From the NCBI GenBank assembly GCA_016180645.1, contig JACPAV010000014.1:1-64000 (forward strand): DNA of 64,000 nucleotides, given 5' to 3'. The stretch comes from Nitrospirota bacterium. Lineage in GTDB: Bacteria > JACPQY01. Every line of letters begins with the position of its first letter. Position 1 is the first letter of the stretch. The translations under genes were made by a program, and so were the position numbers. Positions 1,399 to 18,196 of the stretch are shown here, in pieces. Under the pieces are notes generated by a model, which worked only from the letters and a program-made list of their open reading frames with translations, was not told where the DNA came from and ran no database searches.

Positions 1399-1884
1399 TC
1401 AAACCGCCCGGTAGGAGACAATGGCCAGGCCGGAGACCACGTTGAACAATACGATCAGCGCCGTGGCACCGGACAGGAATAAGTAGAAAGGAAGCCCGCT
1501 CCGGTCGTTCTTGGGATCGAAAGACGGCCCGATCCACGCGATGGCCAGAACGAGCGGAAGACCGACGGCGCCCCACGCCTCTTTGAGGTCGAACCAATTC
1601 GAGAGCCGCGGCAGGTGAGAGTCGAAATAGGCGGCGCGCACGCGATAACGATAGGTGGGATAGGTCAGAAGGCCCAAGGCAACCGTCGCAACGTACGCGG
1701 CCGGCAGGATCCGGGAGTGAAGTTTCTCCAGCCGGTTTCGGATCGTCGATCCACGCTGATACTGGATCAGGGCGGCCAGGTGGTGAAAACTGGACCCGGT
1801 GGCGGCGAAGGCGAACAGCGCGTGGAGTACGAGGAGCGGCTTTCGGAAGTCCTCAAGGAAGAGTCGGATGGGCTCAGTGTCCAA
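1399..1884 (-). CDS. Hypothetical membrane protein (about 4 TM helices)
   Basis: C-terminal part of ORF 1399..2235; TTG start at 1884 overlaps the radical SAM gene end; four hydrophobic stretches. Confidence 0.65.
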   Translation of the reverse strand: MDTEPIRLFLEDFRKPLLVLHALFAFAATGSSFHHLAALIQYQRGSTIRNRLEKLHSRILPAAYVATVALGLLTYPTYRYRVRAAYFDSHLPRLSNWFDLKEAWGAVGLPLVLAIAWIGPSFDPKNDRSGLPFYLFLSGATALIVLFNVVSGLAIVSYRAV

Positions 1885-3127
1885 CGGCGTCGCCCGAGAT
1901 CCGTTCCCGGTGGTAGTCGATGACTTTGGGGCATTCGGGGTCCGGCTGACGGGCATCACCTGTCGCGAAAGCGGCGACCGCCCGGCATCCGCCCCGGCAA
2001 AGGTGAAGGTACGCGCAGGATTGACATGGTTCAGGCGCATCTTGATTCCAGTTCCTGAACACGGCAAAACGCCCGGGATCTTCCCATGTATTTGGAAGCT
2101 CGGCCAGCGGGGCCTCGGCGCCGGTCCAGAAGCTGCATCCGGAAGCCGAACCATCCGCGTGCACCGCCATGAGGTAGTTCCCCGCGACGCATCCCTGAAC
2201 GGTGAAGTGCTCCAATCGCTCCACGCCGGGGTCATGATAGCAAAGGAATGGCACGAACGAGCAGTCGGATTTCAGCCGGATGCGGTGCCGGCGAGTCCAT
2301 TCAAACAGGAGTGGAAAAAACGATCGGCCCTGGGCTTCCGTGAGGCGCGTGCTTTCGTAACTGGACGCCGCCGCACTCGCCGCGTCATCCGGCCATCCTT
2401 GGCCGGAGCGAGAGGTTGCGAGTGCCGCAGGCTTCCTGCCTGCGGCTCGCCCCGTCGGTTTGTACCGGAGGAATTCGACCTCGTTGAGCTTCAGCGATTT
2501 GGCGTAGCGAACGACCTCTTCGAGCACCTCGAAATTCTTCCGGCTCACCACGCAGTTGATGCCGACGCGTTTGACGCGCCGCCGGAGAAGCCGAAGGGCC
2601 CGATCGGCCGCCTCGAATCCCCGATATCCGCGATGGACCGCATACGCCTCCCCCACGCCGTCGAGACTGACATTGACCTGGCCAAAGATACGGCTTTGGC
2701 GTGCCTGCTCTTCCGTCATGGACCTCCCGCTCGTGGTGACATTGGGGATCATCCCTTTTTCGCGGATGTAAGCGGCGAGATCGAACAGCCCATCGAAGGT
2801 GAACGGTTCCCCGCCGCCGAGAGCCACGTGGAGAGCGCCCAGGCGGTGAAGATCATCCACCCGCTGCTTCAGGACGTCGAGGGGGGGGCGGAAGGACGGC
2901 GCGGGTGTGGAGTTGGAGTAGCAATGACGGCAACCATTGGAACAGAAATCCGTAATCGAGAGATGCACTTCCACGGGCCCCGAGAGGAGCCCCACGGAGG
3001 TCTCGCCCGACCAGCGGGCGCCGCCTTCGTGCCCCATCTTCCGCATGAGGGCGCGGTCGGCCAGCACCAGGAGCGCCGGCTTTTCAAATGCGACGATGCC
3101 GCCGAAGTTCTCGAGGCGGACGCGCAT
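1874..3127 (-). CDS. Radical SAM protein with SPASM domain
   Basis: CSNGCRHC (CxxxCxxC), GGGEP, SPASM cysteines CVAG...GCSF...CQSC...CRGGC...DPEC. Confidence 0.93.
   Translation of the reverse strand: MRVRLENFGGIVAFEKPALLVLADRALMRKMGHEGGARWSGETSVGLLSGPVEVHLSITDFCSNGCRHCYSNSTPAPSFRPPLDVLKQRVDDLHRLGALHVALGGGEPFTFDGLFDLAAYIREKGMIPNVTTSGRSMTEEQARQSRIFGQVNVSLDGVGEAYAVHRGYRGFEAADRALRLLRRRVKRVGINCVVSRKNFEVLEEVVRYAKSLKLNEVEFLRYKPTGRAAGRKPAALATSRSGQGWPDDAASAAASSYESTRLTEAQGRSFFPLLFEWTRRHRIRLKSDCSFVPFLCYHDPGVERLEHFTVQGCVAGNYLMAVHADGSASGCSFWTGAEAPLAELPNTWEDPGRFAVFRNWNQDAPEPCQSCAYLHLCRGGCRAVAAFATGDARQPDPECPKVIDYHRERISGDAVGH
2373..2446 (-). mobile_element. Double-hairpin GGA-loop mini-insert (copy D), in frame inside the radical SAM gene
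   Basis: Minus strand gc-[cgcaggc AGGAA gcctgcg]-gc-[actcgc..tccggcca AGGA tggccgga..gcgagt]-gc; removing 72 bp keeps the frame. Confidence 0.55.
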
Positions 3128-4189: not shown

Positions 4190-4600
4190 CTACTTTTTCC
4201 TGGGCGTTTCGCAAAGTTCCAGAAGAACACCGCCCGTTGATTTCGGGTGGATAAACGCAATCTTCTTCCCGTGGGCGCCGACGCGGGGTTTCTCATCGAT
4301 GAGCTGCGCGCCCTTCGCCTTGCAGTCGGCCAGTTTTCCTTCGAGGTTCTCCACGCCGAGCGCCAGGTGGTGGATGCCGGGTCCCCGCTTGTCGATGAAT
4401 TTCGCGATCGGGCTGTCCGGCGAGGTCGGCTCCAGGAGCTCGATGTGGGTCTCGCCCACCGGAATAAAGGCGGTGCGGACTTTCTGTTCTTCCACCTCTT
4501 CGAAATGATCCGGGTGGATGCCGAGGACCTCCTCGTAGAACTTCAGCGCGCCCTCCAGACTCGGGACGGCGATTCCGATGTGGTCCACCTTCTTGAACAT
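4190..4600 (-). CDS. mce: Methylmalonyl-CoA epimerase
   Basis: [49 protein letters not shown]. Confidence 0.95.
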
Positions 4601-4727
4601 GGTTGCCTCCGCAATGGGGATCGAAAGGGAATTTCGAACCGGAGCCGAATTAGCACAGGCGCGAGGGCTTCGTCAATTCGGGGCCGACGGGGAGTGGGAG
4701 ATCCACAATGCCTGGCCTCCCCATCCT

Positions 4728-4850
4728 GGTAGCCGCAGCCCCTTGCCTAGGATGGCATGGGGCCATGATAGGTTGTGGCCCAGGGAATGGGCCACATGGA
4801 ACATGGCCTTCAGGCTGCGCACAAGACGCGGGCTGAAGCCCGCGTCTACC
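4728..4850 (-). repeat. GTAG-type REP doublet interrupted by mini-insert copy A
   Basis: Closely matches the intact copy at 23859..23913 once the insert is removed. Confidence 0.85.
4741..4806 (+). mobile_element. Double-hairpin GGA-loop mini-insert (copy A)
   Basis: cc-[ccttgcc TAGGAT ggcatgg]-gg-[ccatg..gtggccca GGGAA tgggccac..catgg]-cc. Confidence 0.75.
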
Positions 4851-5637
4851 GTCCCTTAAACTCCGGTTCGCGCTTTTGGATGAAGGCGCTCACGCCTTCG
4901 ACCAGATCTTCCGTTTGCGTCACGATCGTCTGGCAGAGCGCCTCGTATTCCAGCGCGGCTCGAAGATCCGTTTCGGCCTGGCGATAGACGGCGCGCTTCA
5001 CCAACTTCATCGGGATCGCCGGCCCCTTCGCCAATTTGCCCACGAACGCTTCCGTCACTTCCCGGAGTTTGTCCGGAGGAGCGATTTTGTTGACGAGCCC
5101 GACCCGATGCGCCTCCTGGGCTTCAATCATCTCGGAGGTCCAGATCAATTCGAGGGCCTTGGAGAGTCCCACCAGCCGCGGCATGAAGTAGGTGCCGCCC
5201 ATGCCGGGACTGAGCCCGATCCGCAGGAACCCGGTGCTGATTTTCGCTTCGGTCGACATGACGCGTAGATCGCACGCGAGGGCGAGCATCATGCCGGCGC
5301 CCACGGCATGGCCGTTGATCATGGCCACCGTCGGGATCTCCAACTGCGTGATGCACAAGAACTTCGGGTAGAACCTGAGGAACCCTTCGCGCCGTTCGGG
5401 TACAGGGGCTTGGAGGTCCATCGAGGTGCTTCGGAGGTCCCCCCCTGAAGAAAACGATTTGCCCGCTCCGGTTACCACCACCACCCGGGCCTCGCGATCG
5501 TCCCGGAGTTCTGCGATGCATCGCGAGAACTCATCCCCCATTTCGGGGCTCATGGCGTTTCGCATGTCCGGCCGGTTCAGCGTGATCCAGACGGCGCCGT
5601 TTTTTCTCTCGACCAGAAATGTAGTGTACTCGGCCAT
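4846..5637 (-). CDS. Enoyl-CoA hydratase/isomerase (crotonase family)
   Basis: ITLNRP..RNA, VTGAGKSFSSGGDL, INGHAVGAG..LALACD, EGVSAF..KREPEFKG. Confidence 0.93.
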   Translation of the reverse strand: MAEYTTFLVERKNGAVWITLNRPDMRNAMSPEMGDEFSRCIAELRDDREARVVVVTGAGKSFSSGGDLRSTSMDLQAPVPERREGFLRFYPKFLCITQLEIPTVAMINGHAVGAGMMLALACDLRVMSTEAKISTGFLRIGLSPGMGGTYFMPRLVGLSKALELIWTSEMIEAQEAHRVGLVNKIAPPDKLREVTEAFVGKLAKGPAIPMKLVKRAVYRQAETDLRAALEYEALCQTIVTQTEDLVEGVSAFIQKREPEFKGR

Positions 5638-5742
5638 GCTGAGGGTCACGTTTACCTCATGGAGGGGCGGGTGCGCAAGCGCGGAAGTGTGACCGCGCCT
5701 ATTGAACAACCGCGGCAATTGGACTAGGTTTCAGAGCGGCGG

Positions 5743-8700
5743 ATGCTGACAAAGAAACGAACCATTCTGCTCGGTACAGGCGCGATCCTGCTCCTGATCG
5801 TCGCTTCGGCGATTAACGGCTACCGGCATACGGTGGATGAAACCGCTGTCGATTTCAACCGATTCCAACTGGCCTTGGTGCGCACGGTGGCCCTGTCCGT
5901 TCATGCGCGTCTTGAAGTCATGGTGTCGGACCTCAAGCAGCTTAACAATCGCCCGCCGATCCAGTACCTCGATCAACCCTTCATGTCGGACAGGCTCCTC
6001 AAGTTTGTGCGTGAATCTCCCCGGAGCTTGGTCAAGGAGGCGTTCCGGGTCGACGCCTCGGGCCGTGAGGTGGCGAAGGTGCGGGGAGACGGCGAGGGAC
6101 CGGCGCATCGCCGCCTCTGGTCCGAAAAGGAGATGTTCGACTGGGCACGCCAACTCTCCCACCGTGGACATGCGCGGTTTGGCGACGTGCGGAGTATTCC
6201 GGGTGGAGGGCAGGAAGTCCTCCTGATCATGCCGACCTACGAGGAAACAACCGGCACCTCCCATCGCAAAGCAACGAACCGGTTTGCGGGAGTGACGGGA
6301 CTGGTCATCGACGTGGACCGAATGCTCCAGCTCTATGTCTCCACAACCGAGAAGGCGGCGCCGGCCAGTTTCATCTGCGTGGTGGACGGCGCTCATCGGT
6401 TCCTCCTGCACACGCGTGTTCCGTCGATGGTGGGGAAGGGGGTTCTTGAGGGGGTCGATCCTGAAAGCCGCGAAGGCCGGTTTCTGACCCGCGCCACGGA
6501 GGAGCCGGAAGGAACGGCCGAGGGATTCTCCCCAGACCGCACGGGACGGGGAAAACCGAGCGAAGAAGTGGTGGCGTGGTCGTCCGCCGAGGTCGAGAAC
6601 CTGAACTGGCGGATCAAGCTTCACACGGCTCACTCCACGGTGGTGGCCAAGGCCCGCCATGCCTTTGCCATGCAGCTCTGGACGGTGGTCTTCCTGATCC
6701 TGACCGTGGGAGGGGGTGCCTGGCTGATGCTCCGGAGCGAACGGCTTGAGATCGCCGCCCGGGATCGCGACCTCGCCCAGCGGCGCGAGTCCGAACTTCG
6801 CTTCCTCGTCGATCGTATCCCGGCCATTCTCTGGTCGGTGGATACCGACCTCAAGATCACTTCCATCCTCGGGGCGGGACTGGCGCCCCTCGGGGTCAAG
6901 CCGAACGAGACGGTGGGGATGAGCCTGTATGACTACATGCAGACGCGCGACCCCGCGAATCCCGCGTTGTCTGCGGCGGCCCGCGCGCTGAAGGGTGAGA
7001 AAGTATCCTACGAAATGGAATGGCAGGGCCATCCCTTCCAATCGTTTGTGGAGCCTCTGCACGATTGGACCGGAAAAATCGTCGGTTGCCTCGGTCTGAG
7101 CCTGGATTTTTCCGAAAGAAAGAAAATCGAGGAGACGCTTCGTCGCAGCGAGGAGCGGTTTCGGATCATCGTGGAGAACGCGCTGGACCCGGTCATGATC
7201 GTGAATCGCGACGGCACCATCCGCTATGCCAGCCGAATGGTGGAAGAGGTTCTCGGCTATTCCCTGGACGAATACCTCGGCCAGTCGGCCTTCGAGTTCA
7301 TGCACCCGGATGACCTCGGCGCCTCGGTCAGTGAGTTCACCCATTCCGTTGAGCATCCCGAAGAGACGAGGCACTTCACCAATCGCATCCGCCGGAAAGA
7401 TGGATCGTGGAGAACGGTGGAGGCCACCGGCAAGAACCTGCTCGGCGACCCGGCCATCGCGGGCATCGTGGTCAATTTCCGGGACGTGACGGATCAACGC
7501 AAGGCCGAAGAGACGGCCCAGGCCGCGCAGAAGCAACTCCTCAGCATCCTGGATACCTTCGACGCGATCATCTGGTCGCAATCGCCATGGGACCGGAAAT
7601 TCTTGTACGTGAGCCCGGCAGCCGAGCGGATTCTCGGGCACCCCATCGCACCCATCCTCGAGAACACCCGGTCCTATTTAGACGTGGTCCTTCCGGAAGA
7701 CCGGGATCGCGTGGATTTCGGAACGGAGATCATGGAGAAGGGCAAGTCCGACACGGAGTACCGGATCCGGAGGCCGGACGGTGAAATCCGCTGGCTTCGG
7801 TCCCGGGGTTGGGTGGTCAAGGACGAGAAGGGGTCCGTGGTGCGTCTGGACGGCATCACCTCGGACATCACTCAGCGGAAGCGGGCGGAGGAAGCCCTCC
7901 AGCGGGAAAAGACCTACTTGCAGGGAATACTGGACAACTCGATGGACCTGATCTTCACCGTGAGGCGAGACGGGACCTTTGGCTACTTCAACCCCCGGCT
8001 CGAAGATGTGACAGGGTATCGGCAGCAAGACCTCACAGGCCGATCGTTCATGGAGTTCATACCGGAGCATCGCAAGGCCTTCATGCTTGAGCGGTGGGAG
8101 GAGATCAATCGCGGCATTTCCGGCCGGTACGAGACGGAGATCATTAGGGCAGACCGAACGCTGATGCAGTGCAGGATTTCTCACTCGGTCTTGCCCGGCT
8201 TCGACGAGTTTCTCGTTGCGTTGCAGGACGTCACGGAGCAGAAAATGGCTGTCGAAGCCCGGAAGGAAAGCGTGGCGTTGTTCGGATCGCTGGTCGAAAA
8301 CATGCAGGCGGGGGTGCTCGTGGAATCCGAACAACGAAAAATCTTCGTGGTGAACCAGGCTTTCTGCAACATGTTCTCGGTTCCCGTTTCGCCCGACCGA
8401 CTGATCGGTGCGGATTGTAAGGAGGCGGCGGTGCGCGACAAGGATCAGTTCGCGGAGGGCGAGACGCTTGTGCAGCGGATCGACGAGATCGTGGAGCGGC
8501 GGGAGGGAGTCATCGGCGAGGAAGTGCGCATGGCGGATGGACGCGTCTTCGAGCGCGACTACATTCCGATCGTCACCGATCATCAAAAGTTCATCGCTCA
8601 TCTGTGGCAGTACCGGGATGTCACCGAACGGAAGCGCGCCGAGGCGGAGCGCATCCGGGTGAGCAAGATGGAATCGATCGGGCTCCTGTCCGGCGGGATC

Positions 8701-9789
8701 GCGCACGATTTCAACAATATTCTGACCGGCATCCTCGCGAACGTCTCCGTGGCGAAGAAAGAGGGGAAGGCGGACACCGAACTCTTCGCCGCCATGGCCG
8801 ACGCGGAGAAGGCCGCTCTGCGCGCCCGGCAACTTACGCAGCAGCTCCTCACACTCTCGCTGGGCGGGGCACCGGTCAAGAAGACGGTGGATCTCGCGCC
8901 TCTCGTTCGCGATGCCGCGGATCTGGCGGTGAAAGGAACCCGGGTGAAATGTGAGTTCGCGTTGCCGGAGGATCTATGGCCCGTGGAGGCGGATACGGTC
9001 CAGCTCAGTCAGGCCGTGGCAAACCTTGTGATCAACGCATGGCAGGCCATGCCTCAGGGCGGCGTGGCCGAAATCAAGGCGGAGAACGTGTATGTCGGTC
9101 CCGGGCACGTGCTGCCGCTCAAGAGTGGTCAGTATGTGGTGGTGACGATTGGAGACCACGGCCCGGGCATCCCGCCCCAAAACCTTCAGAAGATATTCGA
9201 GCCCTACTACAGCACCAAGCCGAGGGGGAGCGGTCTCGGACTGACGGTGGCTCATTCCATCGTGGCCCGGCACCTTGGTTATCTCGCCGTGGACTCGAAG
9301 GTGGGCGTCGGGACGACCGTTGCCGTCTACCTCCCGGCCTCCGAAGGGCGCGTGATCCCCGCACTGGAAGAAAAGATGGAAGTGGCGATGGGCGAAGGAC
9401 GGGTGCTCGTGGTGGATGACGATGAACACGTGCTGATCGCGGCCGAGCGGCTGTTGAAGAAGCTCGGGTACACGGTGGAAGTGGTGCAAGATGCGGAATC
9501 CGGCATCGATGTGTATCGCCGGGCCATGGAGGCCGGGCTGCGGTTCGACCTGGTGATGATGGATCTTACGATTCCCGGCGGCATGGGGGGGAAGGAGGCC
9601 GTGGCCGAGCTGCTCAAGATCGATCCCGAAGCAAGGGTGGTTTGCGCAAGCGGTTACTCCAGCGACCCCGTGATGTCGGACTTTCGCCGGTACGGTTTCC
9701 TGGGCTGCCTGCCGAAGCCGTTCCGAATCCAGGAGTTGAGCCGCGTTCTCGGCGAGGTCCTTGCGCAGCGCTTGCGCCCCTCATCTTGA
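5743..9789 (+). CDS. Hybrid sensor histidine kinase: extracytoplasmic Cache-like domain, 5 PAS domains, HisKA, HATPase, receiver
   Basis: Two TM segments, five PAS/PAC repeats, GGIAHDFNN, NLVINA, DHGPGI, GSGLGL, VLVVDD..MDLTIPGG..KPF. Confidence 0.95.
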   Translation: MLTKKRTILLGTGAILLLIVASAINGYRHTVDETAVDFNRFQLALVRTVALSVHARLEVMVSDLKQLNNRPPIQYLDQPFMSDRLLKFVRESPRSLVKEAFRVDASGREVAKVRGDGEGPAHRRLWSEKEMFDWARQLSHRGHARFGDVRSIPGGGQEVLLIMPTYEETTGTSHRKATNRFAGVTGLVIDVDRMLQLYVSTTEKAAPASFICVVDGAHRFLLHTRVPSMVGKGVLEGVDPESREGRFLTRATEEPEGTAEGFSPDRTGRGKPSEEVVAWSSAEVENLNWRIKLHTAHSTVVAKARHAFAMQLWTVVFLILTVGGGAWLMLRSERLEIAARDRDLAQRRESELRFLVDRIPAILWSVDTDLKITSILGAGLAPLGVKPNETVGMSLYDYMQTRDPANPALSAAARALKGEKVSYEMEWQGHPFQSFVEPLHDWTGKIVGCLGLSLDFSERKKIEETLRRSEERFRIIVENALDPVMIVNRDGTIRYASRMVEEVLGYSLDEYLGQSAFEFMHPDDLGASVSEFTHSVEHPEETRHFTNRIRRKDGSWRTVEATGKNLLGDPAIAGIVVNFRDVTDQRKAEETAQAAQKQLLSILDTFDAIIWSQSPWDRKFLYVSPAAERILGHPIAPILENTRSYLDVVLPEDRDRVDFGTEIMEKGKSDTEYRIRRPDGEIRWLRSRGWVVKDEKGSVVRLDGITSDITQRKRAEEALQREKTYLQGILDNSMDLIFTVRRDGTFGYFNPRLEDVTGYRQQDLTGRSFMEFIPEHRKAFMLERWEEINRGISGRYETEIIRADRTLMQCRISHSVLPGFDEFLVALQDVTEQKMAVEARKESVALFGSLVENMQAGVLVESEQRKIFVVNQAFCNMFSVPVSPDRLIGADCKEAAVRDKDQFAEGETLVQRIDEIVERREGVIGEEVRMADGRVFERDYIPIVTDHQKFIAHLWQYRDVTERKRAEAERIRVSKMESIGLLSGGIAHDFNNILTGILANVSVAKKEGKADTELFAAMADAEKAALRARQLTQQLLTLSLGGAPVKKTVDLAPLVRDAADLAVKGTRVKCEFALPEDLWPVEADTVQLSQAVANLVINAWQAMPQGGVAEIKAENVYVGPGHVLPLKSGQYVVVTIGDHGPGIPPQNLQKIFEPYYSTKPRGSGLGLTVAHSIVARHLGYLAVDSKVGVGTTVAVYLPASEGRVIPALEEKMEVAMGEGRVLVVDDDEHVLIAAERLLKKLGYTVEVVQDAESGIDVYRRAMEAGLRFDLVMMDLTIPGGMGGKEAVAELLKIDPEARVVCASGYSSDPVMSDFRRYGFLGCLPKPFRIQELSRVLGEVLAQRLRPSS

Positions 9790-10871: not shown

Positions 10872-12131
10872 TCAGAACCCGATCCCGAGGGAGAATCGGA
10901 TGCCGGAGCCCTCACGGGAACCGGCAAGCGTCTCCTCCGCGGCCTGCCAAGACACCTCCGTGACCCATTTCAAGCGGCGGAAGAGTCCGAACTGCGCGCC
11001 GCCCTTGAGTTCGAAACCGAAACCGAATTTGGAATCTCCCCCCTGGTTCGTGGGATTGAAAACGGCGCTGTTGCTGAGGGACTGATACTGGAACGCCGGG
11101 CCGACCCCCACGAAAGGTCGGGCGAATTCCGAACCGCCCAGTGGGAAAAGGACGAGGATGCCGAAGGGGATCCGGGTCAAATTGGAAGTATCGGTCCGGC
11201 CGTCGGATCGGGAAAGGCTCGCCGAGCCGGAGAAATAACCCATCGATGCCTGAACGATCCATGGCTCACGCCATACGAAGCCGACGTCGATGGCGGGGCC
11301 GAGAAGCTGGCCGAAAACCTGCCCGGTCTTGGCCGAGGGGCTGAGGATGGAAAGGAATCCTGCGATGTGAATGCGGCGGCTCGGCGGCAGGGGCACGGGA
11401 CGGTCCGCCTGTTTCGGCCCTGTGGCGTTCGCAAGCTCCGCCACCGGCTCTTCATTTCCGGGGTCGATCGGCTGGCCCTGAAGTTTGATCCAGCCGGGGT
11501 TGCCGAGGCTCCATTCCACGGTGCGTTCCAAAGGCGAGCCGACGAGGGCGACCAGCTGGCCCAGTTCGGGTCTCAGCCGGGATTCGAGGTGCTCCACGCG
11601 ATTCAGGAGATCGTTCCACGCCAGCACGTCCGGAGCGGGGAGTGCGGTTCTCGGCCGGCGACCTTCCTCTCCGCTGATGGAAGCGGGCCTGCCTTGCCCC
11701 AAGTGGTCCAACCGGGCCACGAGCGCTCCCAGGGAAGTGCCCCGGCGTACCACGCGCTGCGCAACGATCCGGGGCTGCGCTGGTTTTGCCCGGTAGTCGC
11801 GGGCCAGGTAGATGACGGCCTCGAAGGGGGAATCCCAATCGAACGCCTCGATCGGGATGCTGCCGAGCCATCCACTGAGTCGCCGCGCCAGTCTGCCCTT
11901 CGTTTCCCTGCTGTAGACGGCGGTCCGGTCGGTCTTGACCCGGAGTCGCACCGCCTTGAAGTCAATCCCGCGACTGCGAAGAATGCGCTGCACTTCGAAC
12001 GAAACGGGCTTGGGCACATCCGCCGAGACGAAGAGGGCGACCGTGGACCGCGACTTGGGGGGTGCGGCCATCGCAGGATGAGTGATTCCGAGGACCAAAA
12101 GGGCCGGCAGGAGAAATCTCAGACGCATCAC
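10872..12131 (-). CDS. Exported protein with C-terminal outer-membrane beta-barrel
   Basis: Signal peptide; alternating beta-strand pattern (RPFVGVG, FGFGFELKGG); ends SLGIGF. Confidence 0.65.
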   Translation of the reverse strand: MMRLRFLLPALLVLGITHPAMAAPPKSRSTVALFVSADVPKPVSFEVQRILRSRGIDFKAVRLRVKTDRTAVYSRETKGRLARRLSGWLGSIPIEAFDWDSPFEAVIYLARDYRAKPAQPRIVAQRVVRRGTSLGALVARLDHLGQGRPASISGEEGRRPRTALPAPDVLAWNDLLNRVEHLESRLRPELGQLVALVGSPLERTVEWSLGNPGWIKLQGQPIDPGNEEPVAELANATGPKQADRPVPLPPSRRIHIAGFLSILSPSAKTGQVFGQLLGPAIDVGFVWREPWIVQASMGYFSGSASLSRSDGRTDTSNLTRIPFGILVLFPLGGSEFARPFVGVGPAFQYQSLSNSAVFNPTNQGGDSKFGFGFELKGGAQFGLFRRLKWVTEVSWQAAEETLAGSREGSGIRFSLGIGF

Positions 12132-12143
12132 GCCGCCATTATA

Positions 12144-12725
12144 TCACCGGGATGATTTCGACAGGATGGCGGCGGAGAATTCCAGAGCGGAGGTCAAATG
12201 CAGCGCTTCTTCGAGTGTAGCCCCGATGGCATATGAGCCGTGGCCCCGCATCACGGCGATCCGATGCTCCCGAAGCACTCCGGGCAAGATGCGCGGCATC
12301 TTCCGGTAGCTCTCGATGGTGTTGGCGCCGACGACGGGAACGCGCTGAAGGTGATGAATGCCTTCAACATCCACCGGAACGACGTCCCTCCGGTGTAAGG
12401 AGAGAGCCACAGCCTGAACGGGATGCGCGTGCACGATGGCCCTTGCGCCCGTCAGAGCATAGATGGCCCGGTGGATCTCGACATCCACGGAGGGGGTTCT
12501 TGATCTCCCTCTCCCCTTGCCCGCCGCGGCGGGCTGGCGGGAGAGGGTCAGGGTGAGGGGTACCTTCACAATGTCCTTCGCCCTCAGAACCCCCAGCATT
12601 GCATCATGCCTCGTGATGAAAATGGCCTGCCCGATCCTCACACTCATGTTCCCACTGTGCGACCCGACAAGGCCCAGATCGAAGAGGATTCGGCCGACCG
12701 AACTGAAAGTGTGGGCAAGCGTCAC
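12144..12725 (-). CDS. Class II aldolase/adducin family protein (FucA-like)
   Basis: SGNMSVR, H..IY, AIVHAHP, MRGHG; contains an in-frame palindromic insertion. Confidence 0.88.
   Translation of the reverse strand: MTLAHTFSSVGRILFDLGLVGSHSGNMSVRIGQAIFITRHDAMLGVLRAKDIVKVPLTLTLSRQPAAAGKGRGRSRTPSVDVEIHRAIYALTGARAIVHAHPVQAVALSLHRRDVVPVDVEGIHHLQRVPVVGANTIESYRKMPRILPGVLREHRIAVMRGHGSYAIGATLEEALHLTSALEFSAAILSKSSR
12505..12560. repeat. CCCTCTCCC/GGGAGAGGG-type palindromic element in frame inside the aldolase gene, with nested cccgccgcggcggg hairpin
   Basis: ctccctctccccttg-cccgccgcggcggg-ctggcgggagagggtcagggtgagggg. Confidence 0.7.
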
Positions 12726-15700
12726 GAATGCCGGATCTTCCGCTTCTTCTTGATAGCTCTACGTGCTGATGGCGAGGGTGGAAGCGAATCGGAAATGCTC
12801 CATAGAGCCTCGATTGCGGCTGCACCGTCCAGAGAACGCGGAGTTCGTTTCTTGAGCAGTCGGAGAAGCGGTTGGACGCCCTCTTCCTGTCCAAGTCTGC
12901 CCACCGCGATGGCAGCCGATCTTCTGACTTCCACGTTCTTGTCAAGCAAGGCGGCAAGGAGCGGTCGCAGGCCTTTTCGATCACCGATCTCGCCAAGGGC
13001 CATGGCAGCCGGGGCGCGCACCCTGGGATCCGATTCTTGTGTGAGCATCTTCAGGAGCCTTGGAACTGCGTCAAACATCCGGGCGGCTGATACGCCGAGG
13101 GTTCCTGCCCGTTTCACATCCGGGCTTCCATCCATCAACGCCTTCAGCAACGCATCTTTCGCCTGTGGAGAGCGCATGCCGGCCAGTGCAAGTATGGCGG
13201 GTGCGCGAATTTCCGGTCTTCGGTCCTGGGAGGCGTCGAGCAGTATTCTTTCCGCATCGGAACCTCCAATCCGTGCCAGAGCAAAGGCGACCTCCCGGCG
13301 GGTGTCACCGTCACTTTCACGCTTAAACCGCTCCTCAAGGGGACCCAACGCATCGGGATTTCCCAATTGAGCCAAGGCTTGGGCAGCGGCGCTTCTTACT
13401 TTCGGGTTGGAATCATCGGACAGGATGTTCAAGAGCGTCCGAATCGATTGGGCGCTCCTGAAAAGGCCCAATACCAGCGTCGAGGTGAATCGGACAACCG
13501 GGCTGTTGTCGTTGATGGCCTTGAAAACCTCTTCTTTCGCTCTGGCGCTCCGTGCCCACGTCAAACCGTTGATTGCAGAAGCGCGGACAGTGTCGTCGCG
13601 GCTCTGAAGCGCCTCGATCAGGATTTTCTCGGTTTCCGGAGTTTTCCTCCTGCCCAGTTCTGTTCCGGCCAACCACGAAAGGGGCGGATCACCGCCGTGG
13701 AGTTTTGTGATCAAAGCTTCAATGGGATCCTCGTCAGGCCACCACACTTGGCCTCGTCTCATTTTGACCAAGGCTCTTGAGATTTCACCGTGCAGGCCGG
13801 AGTGACGAACTTCCCTCAAAGCCCACTTCCAAACCTGAAAAGGGATTCTTGGGAAAGTCTTGACGAAGTTTGTTGCAATGGTCGCCCTTAGGTCTTGCGG
13901 CAATGCTTCCGTTACCTCCGCGCCTAGAAGAACGGCCAGGACATCCTGCTTGTGAAGAATCTTGGTGATCCAATTCCGCCTCCCGCCCTGACGAAGGTTC
14001 ATGAAATGTTCGACGAGATTCCTTGCATCTTCCTGACGATTCTGGACGTGGCCCATGTAGCCTGTCCCGAGGCGAATGACCTCCTGCCATCTTGGATCAT
14101 GGAGATGTTGAAGAACCTCGCTCTCAAAATTGCCTTCAGCGTGCAGGCCAACAGCCGCAAAGAACTCCTGAAACTCCAAGTGCATGAACCCCCACTGGCC
14201 GGGGCCTCTTTCAATGAGGATTTGGACCTCTTCCCCGGCCTTGTCCAGAAACACCGCGGCCACGCGACGGGCCTCGGCCTTGGACAGCTTTTCTCTCTCT
14301 CGAATCTTTTCCGCGAGGACGTCGATCACGAACTCTTTTGGGGCCGCTCCCGTCGGCCACTCTCGATGCAGGTTGAGTGCGAGATGTCCGAGGACGGGCA
14401 CGGCCTGTTCCGCATACGGGATGGGCCGACCCGATACATGGCCGGAAACGAGTCGTCGAGCGGTCTCCCACGTTTCGCAAAGGGCGCGGGAGAATATCTC
14501 GTACGCCAGAACCCTGTGGTGAGGGAGATCTCCTTCAGCTCGGTGGATGAGGGCAAGGGCCGAGAGAGCGAACGGGTTTCGAGCGACCTCCGACAGGCGC
14601 GGATTCTCCCGAAGCCTGGAGAGGAGCTTATCCGCATCACGGAGAGCCATCGGATCGTCACCGCCGATCTCCCATTTCCGGTAAGCCCGCGTGAATGCCC
14701 TAACGTAGGTCTCAACCTGGCGGTCGTCGAATGAATCCAGATAGATTTCGGCTTTGTCGTTCATTTCGAAACCGGAATAGCCGACTGTTCGCGAAGAAAT
14801 GATGAACCGATTTCTTGGATATGCGGTGATGAATGTTTCAAGCCAGGCGCGGGTCGCATGCCGGTTTTCGGTTTTTACCTCATCCAACCCATCGAGCAGG
14901 ACCAAACATTCTCCCTGTTCCAGGGAGCGGTGAAGGAAGGTCCGAAGTTCATCTTCCTGCCCAACATTCCGCTCGTGGAAATACCGCGCCATGGCATCTG
15001 GAACCGAGGGGCTTCCTGTCATGGAGTTCCTCATTTCGGCCAGATGGCCCACACTGACAGGCAAAGGCAGAAGTCTTTCACTGAAGCCCAATTGCCGATC
15101 AAGACCGATCCTTCCCTCGGACGAAACGACGGCCAGCCACCTGAGGACCGTCGTTTTCCCCGATCCAGGTTCCCCCAGCAGGACGATCCGTCGATTTACC
15201 CGAAGGGCTTCCGCCAGATCGCGTGTTAAGAGAGGCGACAGCACTTTACCCGCCTCGACGTCTGTCTTTGCGGCCTCACTGGAAGGTCGGTCGAAGGGGA
15301 TGATGCCGTCCGTAGTGCTTTCTTTCTCAGCTTGTTTGATGTGAGGTGAGACAAACACATCCAGGAGGCCCAAGACCGGGGGTTCCTTTCTGGTGAGGCG
15401 GAAACCGACGTAACGAAGATTTTTTATCTCCGGGCTGTTCGAGTAGTACCTGAATTTGTCCCAATACTTCAGATCCTTGTCGGGGAGAAACTTCTCCGGA
15501 TCGGCTCGCTCACGCGCCGCCGGGGGGAAAACGTATGCCACCACATGATCCTTCTCGGAAAGACCGAGACACGGGAAATGTTCAGGTCGTTCGCGCTCGG
15601 GCAGCATTAGATAGACATCCTCCGTAACCGCAACGGAGTTGGAAGGCGTGGCCTGCTCCAGATGCCCGCACAAGTCAATGGCCTGGTGAGACATCTTTCC

Positions 15701-16081
15701 CGTTTCAGGCTCCCATTCCACGGTTGCGGAACTCACGGCAATCCGAGCCTGCAACCCCAGTGAAACACACACCTCTTCCCAGAGATTCTTTGCAAGCTGA
15801 AAACCCCGAACGGGCGCCGGTGTTCCTTCATCATCGGTGAGGTAAATCATGACGCCGTCCCCCTGCCAGGTCAGCGGTTGGACGGCATGAAAACCACGCG
15901 CGGCCGCCTCTACGGCCGCCCAGTAGCGATTGTTGCGCTTGCGCCATTGCCCCTCGATCAGCTCCTTCTTCTCCTGTGTGGACCCCTCCCTGTCGATCTT
16001 CACAAACGCAAGGGAAATCCTTTCCCCTGGGATGATCTTGTCCCACCAAAGGTAGGGTGAGGAGGGGGAATCTGTAATCAA
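12722..16081 (-). CDS. NACHT (STAND) NTPase with N-terminal class III nucleotide cyclase-like domain and C-terminal HEAT repeats
   Basis: Cyclase-like IDREGST/QGDG/ARIAV/HLEQAT..VAVTEDVY; Walker A GEPGSGKTT; Walker B LLDGLDE; FMHLEFQEFFAA; many VR..AA.ALG HEAT repeats; TTG start overlaps the upstream TGA. Confidence 0.88.
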   Translation of the reverse strand: MITDSPSSPYLWWDKIIPGERISLAFVKIDREGSTQEKKELIEGQWRKRNNRYWAAVEAAARGFHAVQPLTWQGDGVMIYLTDDEGTPAPVRGFQLAKNLWEEVCVSLGLQARIAVSSATVEWEPETGKMSHQAIDLCGHLEQATPSNSVAVTEDVYLMLPERERPEHFPCLGLSEKDHVVAYVFPPAARERADPEKFLPDKDLKYWDKFRYYSNSPEIKNLRYVGFRLTRKEPPVLGLLDVFVSPHIKQAEKESTTDGIIPFDRPSSEAAKTDVEAGKVLSPLLTRDLAEALRVNRRIVLLGEPGSGKTTVLRWLAVVSSEGRIGLDRQLGFSERLLPLPVSVGHLAEMRNSMTGSPSVPDAMARYFHERNVGQEDELRTFLHRSLEQGECLVLLDGLDEVKTENRHATRAWLETFITAYPRNRFIISSRTVGYSGFEMNDKAEIYLDSFDDRQVETYVRAFTRAYRKWEIGGDDPMALRDADKLLSRLRENPRLSEVARNPFALSALALIHRAEGDLPHHRVLAYEIFSRALCETWETARRLVSGHVSGRPIPYAEQAVPVLGHLALNLHREWPTGAAPKEFVIDVLAEKIREREKLSKAEARRVAAVFLDKAGEEVQILIERGPGQWGFMHLEFQEFFAAVGLHAEGNFESEVLQHLHDPRWQEVIRLGTGYMGHVQNRQEDARNLVEHFMNLRQGGRRNWITKILHKQDVLAVLLGAEVTEALPQDLRATIATNFVKTFPRIPFQVWKWALREVRHSGLHGEISRALVKMRRGQVWWPDEDPIEALITKLHGGDPPLSWLAGTELGRRKTPETEKILIEALQSRDDTVRASAINGLTWARSARAKEEVFKAINDNSPVVRFTSTLVLGLFRSAQSIRTLLNILSDDSNPKVRSAAAQALAQLGNPDALGPLEERFKRESDGDTRREVAFALARIGGSDAERILLDASQDRRPEIRAPAILALAGMRSPQAKDALLKALMDGSPDVKRAGTLGVSAARMFDAVPRLLKMLTQESDPRVRAPAAMALGEIGDRKGLRPLLAALLDKNVEVRRSAAIAVGRLGQEEGVQPLLRLLKKRTPRSLDGAAAIEALWSISDSLPPSPSARRAIKKKRKIRHS

Positions 16082-17265
16082 GGTCTGACTACACGACCGC
16101 TGAGCACCACTCGGAAGTGCCCCCCTTCCTCCCTGAAATCGGGGTCCGGAGCCCCAAGTTGTCTCATGCGCCGGATCATCTCGGGGACGCCAAATCCGAT
16201 GCTCTCCCGCTTGGTCGTGCGATTCAAGAGAGCGGAAATAATCGGATTCCGGCGCTGAGTGATTCCGTTCTTGATGTTCTCGATCGTCAGCTTGTTCAAG
16301 AGGCCGCCTGGGTTCACGATTTCAATCCGGTCATCGAAGACGAATAGGCGAATTTGTGAGCTGGCCCGGTAGTCCCGGTGAGCAAGGGCATTGAGGACCG
16401 CCTCCCGCAGGGCTTCTTCAGGTATGCCACCTGGTCCCGGTTGTTCCACACGGTCCCATCCCTCGATGTGTGAGGGGGACACAATCTGTTTTCTGATGAA
16501 TGCGAGAACCGACTCCAATTGTTGGGAAATCCTCCCTGTGATGTCTTGTTGATCCTTGACATCATGCCTGAACTCTTTTCCTCGAATGCGGACGGCGGAG
16601 ATCCTGGCATCAAGGAGCCATTTCCCGGGAAACTTTGCGAAGAAAAGAATTCCTGCGAGGGTAGGGATCCCACTTGGGTCGAGGCATTTCAATTCTTGGA
16701 GATAGCGAGGGAGTTCCTCTTCCGTGAAATTCCTCCCATACATTTCTTGGGTAAATTCGCTCGTGGCCTGCTGGTCCAAGTCTTCGTAGGTCGAGCCTGA
16801 TACCGGTGTTTCGTCGAAGTGGGAATCGGCGGATTGGAGAAGCCTCACAAGCTCATCGCGTGAAGCCTCTCGCGACCGGTTGGCGTCTCTGACGTAGTAA
16901 AGGTGTCCTGCCCTAAAAGGTCTGTCCGTAGAAAACCCGGGGATTTCCACAACAAGAAGGGGCATTTCTCCGACCATGATCTTGTTTTGCGTACAGGAAA
17001 TTGGCGGATGAACTTTATCCCGACATGCTTGACTGACCTTACGCATGATGGAGTCGGCTTGCCCCATGTCCCCGATGCCGGAGAGACTTCCATCATCCTC
17101 TACGCCGATGAGGATGACGCCGCCCCCGGAATTGGCGAAGGCCACGATTGCCTTGGCCATGATGTCGAGATCAACGTCGAAACCCGCCTTTGCGACGCCC
17201 TTGAACTCGGTCCTGGAATCTTCTCCTAGAGAGAGCCTTTGCTGGATTTGAGCTGCATCAACCAT
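16078..17265 (-). CDS. Schlafen/AlbA_2 domain + HATPase_c_4 ATP-binding protein
   Basis: GEDSRTEFK, AFANSGGGVILIGVEDDG, REAVLNALAHRDY, NPGGL, RNPII. Confidence 0.88.
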   Translation of the reverse strand: MVDAAQIQQRLSLGEDSRTEFKGVAKAGFDVDLDIMAKAIVAFANSGGGVILIGVEDDGSLSGIGDMGQADSIMRKVSQACRDKVHPPISCTQNKIMVGEMPLLVVEIPGFSTDRPFRAGHLYYVRDANRSREASRDELVRLLQSADSHFDETPVSGSTYEDLDQQATSEFTQEMYGRNFTEEELPRYLQELKCLDPSGIPTLAGILFFAKFPGKWLLDARISAVRIRGKEFRHDVKDQQDITGRISQQLESVLAFIRKQIVSPSHIEGWDRVEQPGPGGIPEEALREAVLNALAHRDYRASSQIRLFVFDDRIEIVNPGGLLNKLTIENIKNGITQRRNPIISALLNRTTKRESIGFGVPEMIRRMRQLGAPDPDFREEGGHFRVVLSGRVVRP

Positions 17266-17371
17266 GGCAAGAGTATAACCACCGCAGGGACACGGCGCAA
17301 AACGCCAGAGCCGGAACCGGCTTGCCCCTCACCGCCCGAAAATGGAATAATGCGGCCCAAAGGAGAAAACG

Positions 17372-18196
17372 ATGGATTGGGGAATGAAAAACAGAATGTC
17401 CGCCGTGTTCCGGCCGGAAACGGGCCGCGCCGTCATGCTGGCCGTGGATCACGGGTATTTTCAAGGTCCGACCACCGGCCTGGAATCGCCGAGGGATGTG
17501 GTGGCGCCGCTCCTGCCGCATGCCGACGCGCTGATGTGCACGCGCGGGCTACTCCGAAATTGCGTCGATCCCTCCACGAACGCTCCCGTAGTGCTGCGAG
17601 TTTCAGGCGGGCCGAGCGTGCTCAAAGAGCTTTCCGATGAGGAGATCACGACGTCCATGCAGGAGGCCGTCCGTCTGAACGCGGTGGGCGTGGGCATGTC
17701 CATCTTCGTCGGTTCCGAGAACGAACGGCGCAATATCGTGAATCTCGGCCGATTGGTGAACGAGGCGGAGGATTGGGGGATGCCGGTGTTGGCGATCACC
17801 GCGGTCGGCCGCGAGATGGAGCGCGATGCCCGTTACCTCGGATTATGCTGCCGGATCGCCGCCGAGATCGGAGCCCACTACGTGAAGACGTATTTCTGCA
17901 AGGATTTCGAGAAAGTGGTGCAAGGGACGCCGGTGCCCGTGGTCATCGCAGGCGGGAAGAAACTCCCCGAACGGGAGGCGCTGGAACTTTCGTACAACGC
18001 CATCCAGGGTGGGGCTTCGGGAGTCGACATGGGCCGGAATATCTTCCAATCCGAACATCCGGTGGCCATGATCCGCGCCGTGCGGGCGGTGGTCCACCAG
18101 AAAGCAACGGCCAAGGAGGCGTTCGATCTGTACGAATCCCTCGCCCGCGGAAGAGAGGAGGTGGCTCAGTTGCCGAAATCCCGGAAGGCGAGATAA
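17372..18196 (+). CDS. lsrF: LsrF-type class I aldolase/thiolase
   Basis: MDWGMKNR..MLAVDHGYFQGPTTGLE, VKTY, VPVVIAGGKKLPE, GVDMGRNIFQ. Confidence 0.9.
   Translation: MDWGMKNRMSAVFRPETGRAVMLAVDHGYFQGPTTGLESPRDVVAPLLPHADALMCTRGLLRNCVDPSTNAPVVLRVSGGPSVLKELSDEEITTSMQEAVRLNAVGVGMSIFVGSENERRNIVNLGRLVNEAEDWGMPVLAITAVGREMERDARYLGLCCRIAAEIGAHYVKTYFCKDFEKVVQGTPVPVVIAGGKKLPEREALELSYNAIQGGASGVDMGRNIFQSEHPVAMIRAVRAVVHQKATAKEAFDLYESLARGREEVAQLPKSRKAR

Follow-up and report, generated by a model that had tools for sequence, protein, structure and literature searches.

Pycsar consists of a palm-fold cyclase and a separately encoded effector. A further cyclase–effector pair has been described under the name Pucsar (bioRxiv 10.64898/2026.08.12.744502), and in the Cash system a Schlafen effector is switched on by the cyclic nucleotide cA4 (PMC13462974). 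Schlafen-ATPase genes are reported beside BREX, restriction-modification (RM) and CRISPR systems. Bacterial NACHT (bNACHT) proteins have cyclic nucleotide monophosphate (cNMP) cyclases among their N-terminal effector domains, include fusions of Schlafen (SLFN) and NACHT domains such as bNACHT34, and are only rarely encoded in operons, which are poorly conserved (Kibby et al., bioRxiv 10.1101/2022.07.19.500537). Among prokaryotic Schlafen proteins, in which E(x)4(D/E)xK and SAFAN are the nuclease-site motifs, the combination of SLFN with PF13749 has been named 'Schlatpase' and accounts for 60,692 of 103,533 proteins; in RzAgo, a fusion of SLFN with a prokaryotic Argonaute (pAgo), ATP on the GHKL domain leads to tetramerisation and tRNA cleavage, and SLFN+GHKL modules protect against phage and are swapped among pAgo, NACHT and RM systems (bioRxiv 10.64898/2026.05.29.728809). 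The same architecture, termed pSlfn-HisKinase, is the commonest of 55 classes, at 34.0% (Nat Microbiol 2026, PMC13056530). Here, we analyse a stretch of 64,000 nucleotides from the Nitrospirota bacterium JACPQY01 (contig JACPAV010000014.1, positions 1 to 64,000; hereafter, the window), in which a gene for a Schlafen–GHKL protein overlaps the gene for a large protein composed of a cyclase-like N-terminal domain (the head), a NACHT NTPase and HEAT repeats. The pair is most likely an antiviral system, and we regard it as on balance probable that the two genes form an NLR-type immune cassette, with the Schlafen RNase as the effector and a nucleotide signal provided by the cyclase-like head.

Organisation of the gene pair

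Both genes lie on the reverse strand of the window. Their features are as follows (positions are those of the window, residues those of the respective protein):

16078..17265, minus strand: Schlafen (AlbA_2) + GHKL ATPase gene, 395 amino acids, ATG start (P0002; open reading frame (ORF), translation, Pfam, fold)
16864..17223, minus strand: SLFN_AlbA_2 nuclease domain of P0002, residues 15-134 (Pfam PF04326)
16102..16359, minus strand: GHKL-type ATP-binding domain HATPase_c_4 of P0002, residues 303-388 (Pfam PF13749)
16078..16081, minus strand: TTGA overlap, shared by the TGA stop codon of the Schlafen ORF and the TTG start codon of the NACHT ORF (sequence)
12722..16081, minus strand: cyclase-like domain–NACHT–HEAT gene, 1119 amino acids, TTG start (P0001; ORF, translation, Pfam)
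15512..16033, minus strand: divergent class III cyclase homology domain of P0001, residues ~17-190 (AlphaFold2 (AF2), Foldseek, VIA, column counts)
14687..15193, minus strand: NACHT NTPase module of P0001, residues 297-465 (Pfam PF05729)
12803..13624, minus strand: HEAT-repeat array of P0001, residues ~820-1093, presumed ligand sensor (Pfam HEAT_2, HEAT, HEAT_PBS)

The junction reads ...CCT TGA / TTG ATT..., an overlap of 4 nucleotides, and the Schlafen and cyclase-like–NACHT–HEAT genes are translationally coupled; the ORFs and the junction sequence thus bear out the overlapping arrangement reported in an earlier note on this DNA. The gene-caller version of the large protein (P0003, 1093 amino acids) begins at a GTG 26 codons downstream. 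However, the TTG start is the more likely one, because all homologues of the large protein begin approximately 10 residues ahead of a conserved WW motif. The two genes are also modestly AT-richer than their surroundings, as had been judged by eye, with a GC content of 0.55 and 0.57 versus 0.614 for the window and a third-codon-position GC content (GC3) of 0.62 and 0.63 versus 0.72-0.80 in most neighbouring genes. A promoter and terminator scan of positions 11900-17500 yielded no more sites than shuffled sequences.

Conservation of the pairing across phyla

The region upstream of the head–NACHT gene was viewed in 13 loci, namely, the window, 2 sampled genomes (G008 and G096), 6 species genomes (3 from Planctomycetota, 1 each from Methylomirabilota and Thermoanaerobaculia, and 1 from an unclassified bacterium) and 4 metagenome contigs. 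In 12 of these loci, window included, the head–NACHT gene is immediately preceded by a Schlafen+GHKL gene in the same orientation; in L018 the Schlafen+GHKL gene is cut by the contig end, and L011 and L019, which have identical identity values, may represent one organism. L010, from Methylomirabilota, is a natural loss of the RNase half: positions 5765-5929 retain a 55-residue Schlafen remnant equivalent to residues 220-274 of P0002 (40% identity), and the head–NACHT gene is still open over 921 codons, with the contig ending inside the gene. The 4-nucleotide NTGA overlap recurs in 8 of the 9 junctions measured, the ninth (L037) overlapping by 16 nucleotides under the first-start rule. The identities of the two proteins correlate with each other (r 0.94; 36 pairwise comparisons among 9 loci), although the p-value of this coefficient means little because the 36 pairs are not independent.

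Within a sample of 401 genomes, the head was found in 3, scattered over unrelated families, and each of the 3 carries the Schlafen gene upstream. Proteins similar to P0002 (E<=1e-50) are encoded by 8 of the 401 genomes, in which the gene is accompanied by a head–NACHT gene (3 cases), linked to RM genes (1 case, G157), followed by small unknown ORFs (1 case) or placed at a contig end (3 cases). In the RM-linked case (L035, positions 5161-8816), a Schlafen module is built into a restriction-modification operon: the Schlafen+GHKL gene has the gene for a D12-class adenine methyltransferase on one side and that for a ResIII/type III restriction subunit on the other. The dependence is thus one-sided: every head–NACHT–HEAT gene seen is accompanied by the Schlafen gene or, in L010, by its remnant, but Schlafen genes of this kind also serve other partners. 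The earlier note counted it against a defence pair if the two genes never co-occurred elsewhere; they do, in a pairing conserved across several phyla that is not due to chance.

A 673-residue protein combining Schlafen, GHKL and head regions (P0005) was considered as a Rosetta-stone fusion and rejected, since its junction reads like an out-of-frame Schlafen C-terminus, as expected of a frameshift through the overlap; P0005 appears to show gene adjacency only. A search of longer proteins for true fusions of the Schlafen protein, weak as evidence, returned nothing but the unrelated P0231. The latter, a 1684-residue metagenomic protein, joins a PF13749 GHKL domain to HerA-like (PF01935, PF05872), AAA_10 and ResIII domains, which is another wiring to nucleic-acid enzymes.

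The small protein is a predicted Schlatpase

Pfam matches for SLFN_AlbA_2 (67.6 bits) and HATPase_c_4 (81.9 bits), both over the cut-off, uphold the earlier assignment of P0002 to the Schlafen/AlbA_2 proteins and add a GHKL ATPase half that had been overlooked. The nuclease motif reads E15-x4-E20-x-K22 and is followed by V41-AFAN45 (VAFAN, 41-45) and a GGG run, whereas the GHKL half is preceded by the conserved NALAHRDY stretch (292-299), just ahead of the HATPase_c_4 domain. An alignment of 17 sequences, comprising the partners from 9 loci, 1 RM-linked relative and 7 database relatives, revealed invariant residues in both halves: G14, E15, E20, F21, K22, N45, G48 and G49 in the nuclease, and R287, E288, N292, A293, H296, R297, D298, Y299, P319, G320, R339 and N340 in the GHKL part. 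Foldseek searches with the AF2 model of P0002 (pLDDT 85.1) retrieved, as best matches, 3lmm (DIP2311), the N-domains (nuclease) of SLFN11/12/13/14, the SAMD9 tRNase domain and the GHKL domains of histidine kinases. Judging by the co-occurrence of SLFN_AlbA_2 and PF13749, the nuclease motif and the SAFAN box, the small protein is a predicted Schlatpase. Its close relatives include many Myxococcota names.

The large protein combines a cyclase-like head with NACHT and HEAT modules

The NACHT module of P0001 matches PF05729 with 55 bits (cut-off 26.7), and both the Walker A (GSGK309T) and the Walker B (LLD397GLD400E401) motifs are intact, whereas the HEAT array matches HEAT_2 with 166.5 bits. Together with the cyclase-like fold of the head described below, these matches substantiate the effector–STAND–repeat sensor layout proposed in the earlier note. 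The NCBIfam models EruA and HyoA touch only the P-loop (37 and 20 bits versus cut-offs of 1000 and 1200), and PADLOC matches to P0001 are confined to the HEAT region, with no named antiphage NACHT model among them. In the closest pair of loci, L012 and L017, the head and the NACHT core are each 84% identical and the helical region is 79% identical, whereas the HEAT array is only 46% identical and differs in length by 186 residues, that is, by a change in repeat number. In this comparison, the HEAT array is the fastest-diverging part of the large protein, and conservation of the head equals that of the NACHT core.

Scanning 1.84 billion representatives with HMMER identified the head in 105 representative clusters (84 at E<=1e-10 and 41 at E<=1e-30), in nearly all of which it is N-terminal, in proteins of 900-1250 amino acids. 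An alignment of 53 sequences (A2) was used as the input for AF2 modelling of residues 1-256, which gave a confident model with pLDDT of 90.7 and pTM of 0.86. The best Foldseek matches of this model in the PDB are all catalytic domains of class III adenylyl or guanylyl cyclases, with a probability of 1.00, including CyaC (E 8.7e-10) and Rv1900c (TM 0.79-0.83). Structural alignment with VIA-align superimposed the head on Rv1900c with a Z-score of 19.7 and a root-mean-square deviation of 2.2 A, covering 159 of 163 Rv1900c residues; the alignment with the Pycsar cUMP synthase 7r65 (Z 17.2) signifies resemblance only. A profile search of solved structures with A2 returned matches dominated by HEAT repeats and nothing informative on the head.

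Scans with head motifs led to Solirubrobacter cyclase–AAA_16–TPR proteins that pass the Pfam Guanylate_cyc model (PF00211), share 31-32% identity with the head over approximately 100 residues and contain the WQGDGVM motif verbatim. D30 and D75 of the head align with the two metal-binding Asp residues of these PF00211-positive proteins. At position 30, 46 of 50 family sequences have D and 3 have E; the corresponding figures for position 75 are 45 and 5 among 53 sequences, and 48 of 53 keep R113. Thus, the head is predicted to have the class III cyclase fold together with both metal-binding Asp residues. The earlier cyclase call is therefore sustained by the fold (AF2, Foldseek and VIA) but not by Pfam or by the catalytic Asn and Arg, and because the head departs from a canonical class III cyclase on two sequence criteria, it is referred to here as cyclase-like.

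The nearest Pfam-positive relative of the window head is the canonical cyclase of the Solirubrobacteraceae locus L016 (positions 4409-5080 and 5671-8856), where the cyclase–AAA_16–TPR gene adjoins the gene for a Crp-type cNMP-binding transcription factor, in what looks like an ordinary cyclic AMP signalling pair.

Genomic context and probable mobility

Two aldolase genes flank the pair in the window:

12144..12725, minus strand: class II aldolase (Aldolase_II) gene, the GTG start of which overlaps the stop of the NACHT gene by GTGA (Pfam)
17372..18196, plus strand: DeoC/LacD-family aldolase gene, diverging from the pair

Aldolase genes had been noted on both sides; Aldolase_II stands on one, and the gene on the other, previously labelled lsrF, is given here as a DeoC/LacD-family aldolase. 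Three consecutive genes of the window (Schlafen, NACHT and aldolase) are joined by 4-nucleotide overlaps. The aldolase overlap looks like an accident of insertion, because the class II aldolase gene adjoins the pair in no other locus, and it may fall under the transcription of the cassette. Each locus has its own set of housekeeping genes around the pair, encoding among others aconitase, fumarase, malate dehydrogenase, AcrB, QueC, TrmO and a ParA-like ATPase, and no neighbour was conserved across the loci examined. Regulation of the neighbouring aldolase genes was considered as a role for the pair and rejected for this reason.

In the window, L038, L012 and L017, the flanks exceed the pair in GC or GC3. 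Taken together, these features agree with a compact, self-contained cassette that moves horizontally and carries a rapidly evolving sensor. The source genome (G000) is phylogenetically isolated within the genome collection used, with a single genome from the same family (G001) and other relatives that share only the domain. In an empty-site comparison with G001, which is 84% complete, neither flanking aldolase was found. Elsewhere in the window, on the minus strand at 1874-3127, a gene for a radical SAM protein adjoins an HpcH-family aldolase/lyase gene; its weak match to the PADLOC model of prokaryotic viperins (E 4e-14) probably reflects generic radical SAM similarity.

Proposed mechanism and alternatives

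In the reading that we prefer, the HEAT array would recognise a phage-derived cue and the NACHT module would oligomerise, bringing the cyclase-like heads together. The heads would then make or bind a nucleotide that licenses the Schlafen–GHKL protein to assemble, and the latter would cut tRNA or other RNA, causing a translation stop in the infected cell (abortive infection). Class III cyclase domains are active only as dimers. The coupling of the head to the Schlafen protein is the weakest link in this chain, and we lean only a little more towards a nucleotide signal than towards direct contact of the two proteins. A signal is supported by the conserved metal dyad, a head as conserved as the NTPase core, the absence of fusions and messenger precedents such as Cash, Pycsar and Pucsar. 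The sequence from HEAT sensing through the cyclase to the Schlafen protein had been outlined in the earlier note; the domain layout and the pairing speak for it, whereas the absence of the canonical Asn and Arg and of a cNMP sensor in the Schlafen protein does not.

A number of observations weigh against a nucleotide-signalling immune cassette. For residues 1-298 of P0001, Pfam returned no family at E<=10, with Guanylate_cyc PF00211 not matched, and no Pycsar, CBASS or other cyclase model is found among the PADLOC matches to this protein (E<=0.01). In class III cyclases, the Asn and Arg of the N..AAR motif stabilise the transition state, and the base is specified by a Lys/Asp or Glu/Cys pair. 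The N..AAR motif reads D136..CGH140 in the window protein, with Asp136 in place of Asn and His140 in place of Arg. The family counts are D29/N7/S6/E3 at position 136 and H38/R3 at position 140. The base-specifying Lys position, occupied by T71, 4 residues before D75, is variable (H12, S8, A8, E7). The cyclase activity of the head is uncertain because the transition-state residues are replaced and the base-specifying position varies, and a Pycsar-like signal is, given Asp136 and His140, something that we infer rather than a finding. On the receiving side, Pfam detected no cNMP-binding, CARF, SAVED or Csx15-type sensor domain in P0002. Furthermore, the RM-linked Schlafen protein of L035, which is 32-34% identical to P0002 and whose gene shares a 4-nucleotide overlap with the restriction subunit gene, has no cyclase, implying that the effector does not generally need a cyclase product. 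As for the surroundings, neither PADLOC nor Pfam revealed a defence system beside the pair in the window or the other loci, the RM genes of L035 apart, so that the enrichment near defence genes considered in the earlier note was not seen in the flanks examined; the defence-island idea was rejected, with 33 window ORFs and 10 ORFs elsewhere giving only generic weak matches to PADLOC models. Searches with the head in plasmid, phage and viral-contig collections gave no match.

These observations bear differently on the alternatives. It is possible, though in our view rather unlikely, that the two proteins communicate by direct contact, the Schlafen–GHKL protein being held by or docked on the NACHT protein, whose oligomerisation would free or assemble the RNase tetramer; in that case, which we hold just as tentatively, the head would serve in regulation, by binding nucleotides or by dimerising, or act as a second effector, and there would be no diffusible signal. 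The loss of the catalytic Asn and Arg from the cyclase-like domain, the lack of a nucleotide sensor in the effector and the RM-linked relative without a cyclase all favour contact, and translational coupling through the 4-nucleotide overlap, present at 8 of 9 junctions, suggests that the two proteins are made in matching amounts. Moreover, the partners of Schlafen–GHKL modules elsewhere vary, including pAgo, a type I RM specificity subunit and NACHT in the literature and the ResIII subunit in L035, from which a generic protein-level gate can be argued. However, retention of the metal-binding Asp in approximately 90% of the family and conservation of the head on a par with the NACHT core exceed what a docking surface usually needs, and no true fusion of the two proteins was found, although this last point is weak evidence. 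Complex prediction for the Schlafen protein with the cyclase-like head, with scores of 0.00 and 0.21 against a mark of 0.32, weighs neither way on binding. A nucleotide signal could also take another form, in that the Asp/His head, turned on when the protein oligomerises in the NLR manner, would make a non-canonical nucleotide, with the GHKL ATP pocket or the linker domain of the Schlafen protein as its receptor; we consider this version unlikely. If true, it would define a new messenger–receptor pair by which an NLR-like sensor is linked to a Schlafen tRNase, and the first head of a STAND protein to signal to a separate effector via a small molecule.

Two further explanations lie outside immunity. 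A housekeeping, sensor-gated cyclic-nucleotide switch resembling the actinobacterial cyclase–STAND–TPR regulators, with the Schlafen–GHKL protein as an RNA- or DNA-binding regulator, would agree with the relatedness of the head to the Solirubrobacter PF00211 cyclase–AAA_16–TPR proteins, one of which is encoded beside a Crp-type cNMP-binding regulator, with the housekeeping nature of the flanking genes, among which no defence island was seen, and with the class II aldolase gene that follows with a 4-nucleotide overlap in the window. We nevertheless deem such a switch quite improbable: the neighbours differ in every locus and hence tie the pair to no single pathway, its distribution is patchy (3 of 401 sampled genomes, from unrelated families), its composition differs from that of the flanks, its HEAT array is hypervariable, the residues of the Schlafen nuclease motif do not vary, and P0002 is without the helix-turn-helix domain that its regulator-like relatives carry. 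Still less credible, and in our estimate very improbable, is a selfish addiction module akin to toxin–antitoxin pairs, in which the large protein would hold a Schlafen RNase toxin in check and the pair would be kept by post-segregational killing. The cassette is indeed compact, overlapping and horizontally moving, and L010 retains only a decayed RNase gene beside a NACHT gene that stays open, but an NLR-like protein of 1119 amino acids with an intact NTPase and hypervariable repeats goes far beyond the needs of an antitoxin, and the plasmid and phage collections gave no copy.

Comparison with known systems

No named PADLOC system matches the pair, in line with the earlier statement that the combination was not recognisable as a named system. 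A full-text literature search returned no description of a stand-alone Schlafen–GHKL gene fixed to a cyclase-like–NACHT–HEAT gene in the texts that it covered, although supplementary tables may list the clade, and the words NACHT, cyclase and operon are absent from the main text of PMC13056530. The pair adds a new operonic variant to two known kinds, the bNACHT proteins and the prokaryotic Schlafens. Both halves belong to families common to bacterial and animal innate immunity, namely, NLR-like NACHT switches and Schlafen tRNases, and here they form a fixed two-gene unit with a cyclase-like domain set between sensing and killing. Should the head produce a signal, the cassette would provide an NLR-type sensor acting at a distance via a nucleotide, as well as an activation mechanism for the widespread stand-alone Schlafen–GHKL proteins; if it does not, the cassette would be a natural case for the gating of a separate Schlafen RNase by a STAND oligomer and for a role of a catalytically altered cyclase fold in immunity. 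With approximately 100 sequence clusters, two genes and clear point mutants, the family is tractable.

The actinobacterial proteins encoded by L015 and L016, which we take to be comparable to the Mycobacterium Rv0386 type, share with the large protein the order of head, STAND NTPase (AAA_16) and helical repeats (TPR) as well as the WQGDGVM motif, but they pass PF00211, keep N..AAR, use AAA_16 and TPR, and have no Schlafen partner. Similar to Pycsar and Pucsar, the pair combines a palm-fold cyclase-type head with a separately encoded effector. Unlike in Pycsar, the cyclase-like domain is tethered to an NLR-type sensor, the effector is without a Pfam-detected nucleotide sensor, and no PADLOC Pycsar model was matched. 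The likeness to Cash lies in the use of a Schlafen RNase as the effector, which in Cash is switched on by a cyclic nucleotide.

The closest parallels are provided by the two families to which the halves belong. The small protein has the two-domain build of the Schlatpases, including RzAgo; an E-x4-(D/E)-x-K motif, a SAFAN-type box and an intact GHKL pocket are common to both. However, the Schlatpases described in the cited passages are SLFN-NACHT and SLFN-pAgo proteins, fusions to RM specificity (S) subunits or stand-alone proteins in RM operons, whereas P0002 is a separate polypeptide with a fixed cyclase-like–NACHT–HEAT partner. The large protein has the bNACHT architecture, that is, a NACHT module with intact Walker A and B motifs, an enzymatic type of N-terminal head and a C-terminal sensor of HEAT-type repeats. 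It is set apart from the bNACHT proteins of Kibby et al. by the second gene, present in 12 of 13 loci, and by the head, which belongs to a divergent clade missed by Pfam and in which Asp replaces Asn and His replaces Arg. Finally, as in SLFN-NACHT fusions such as bNACHT34, a Schlafen RNase would be controlled by a NACHT switch, but the head slot is occupied by the cyclase-like domain, and the Schlafen protein, equipped with a GHKL ATPase of its own, is encoded by the gene upstream.

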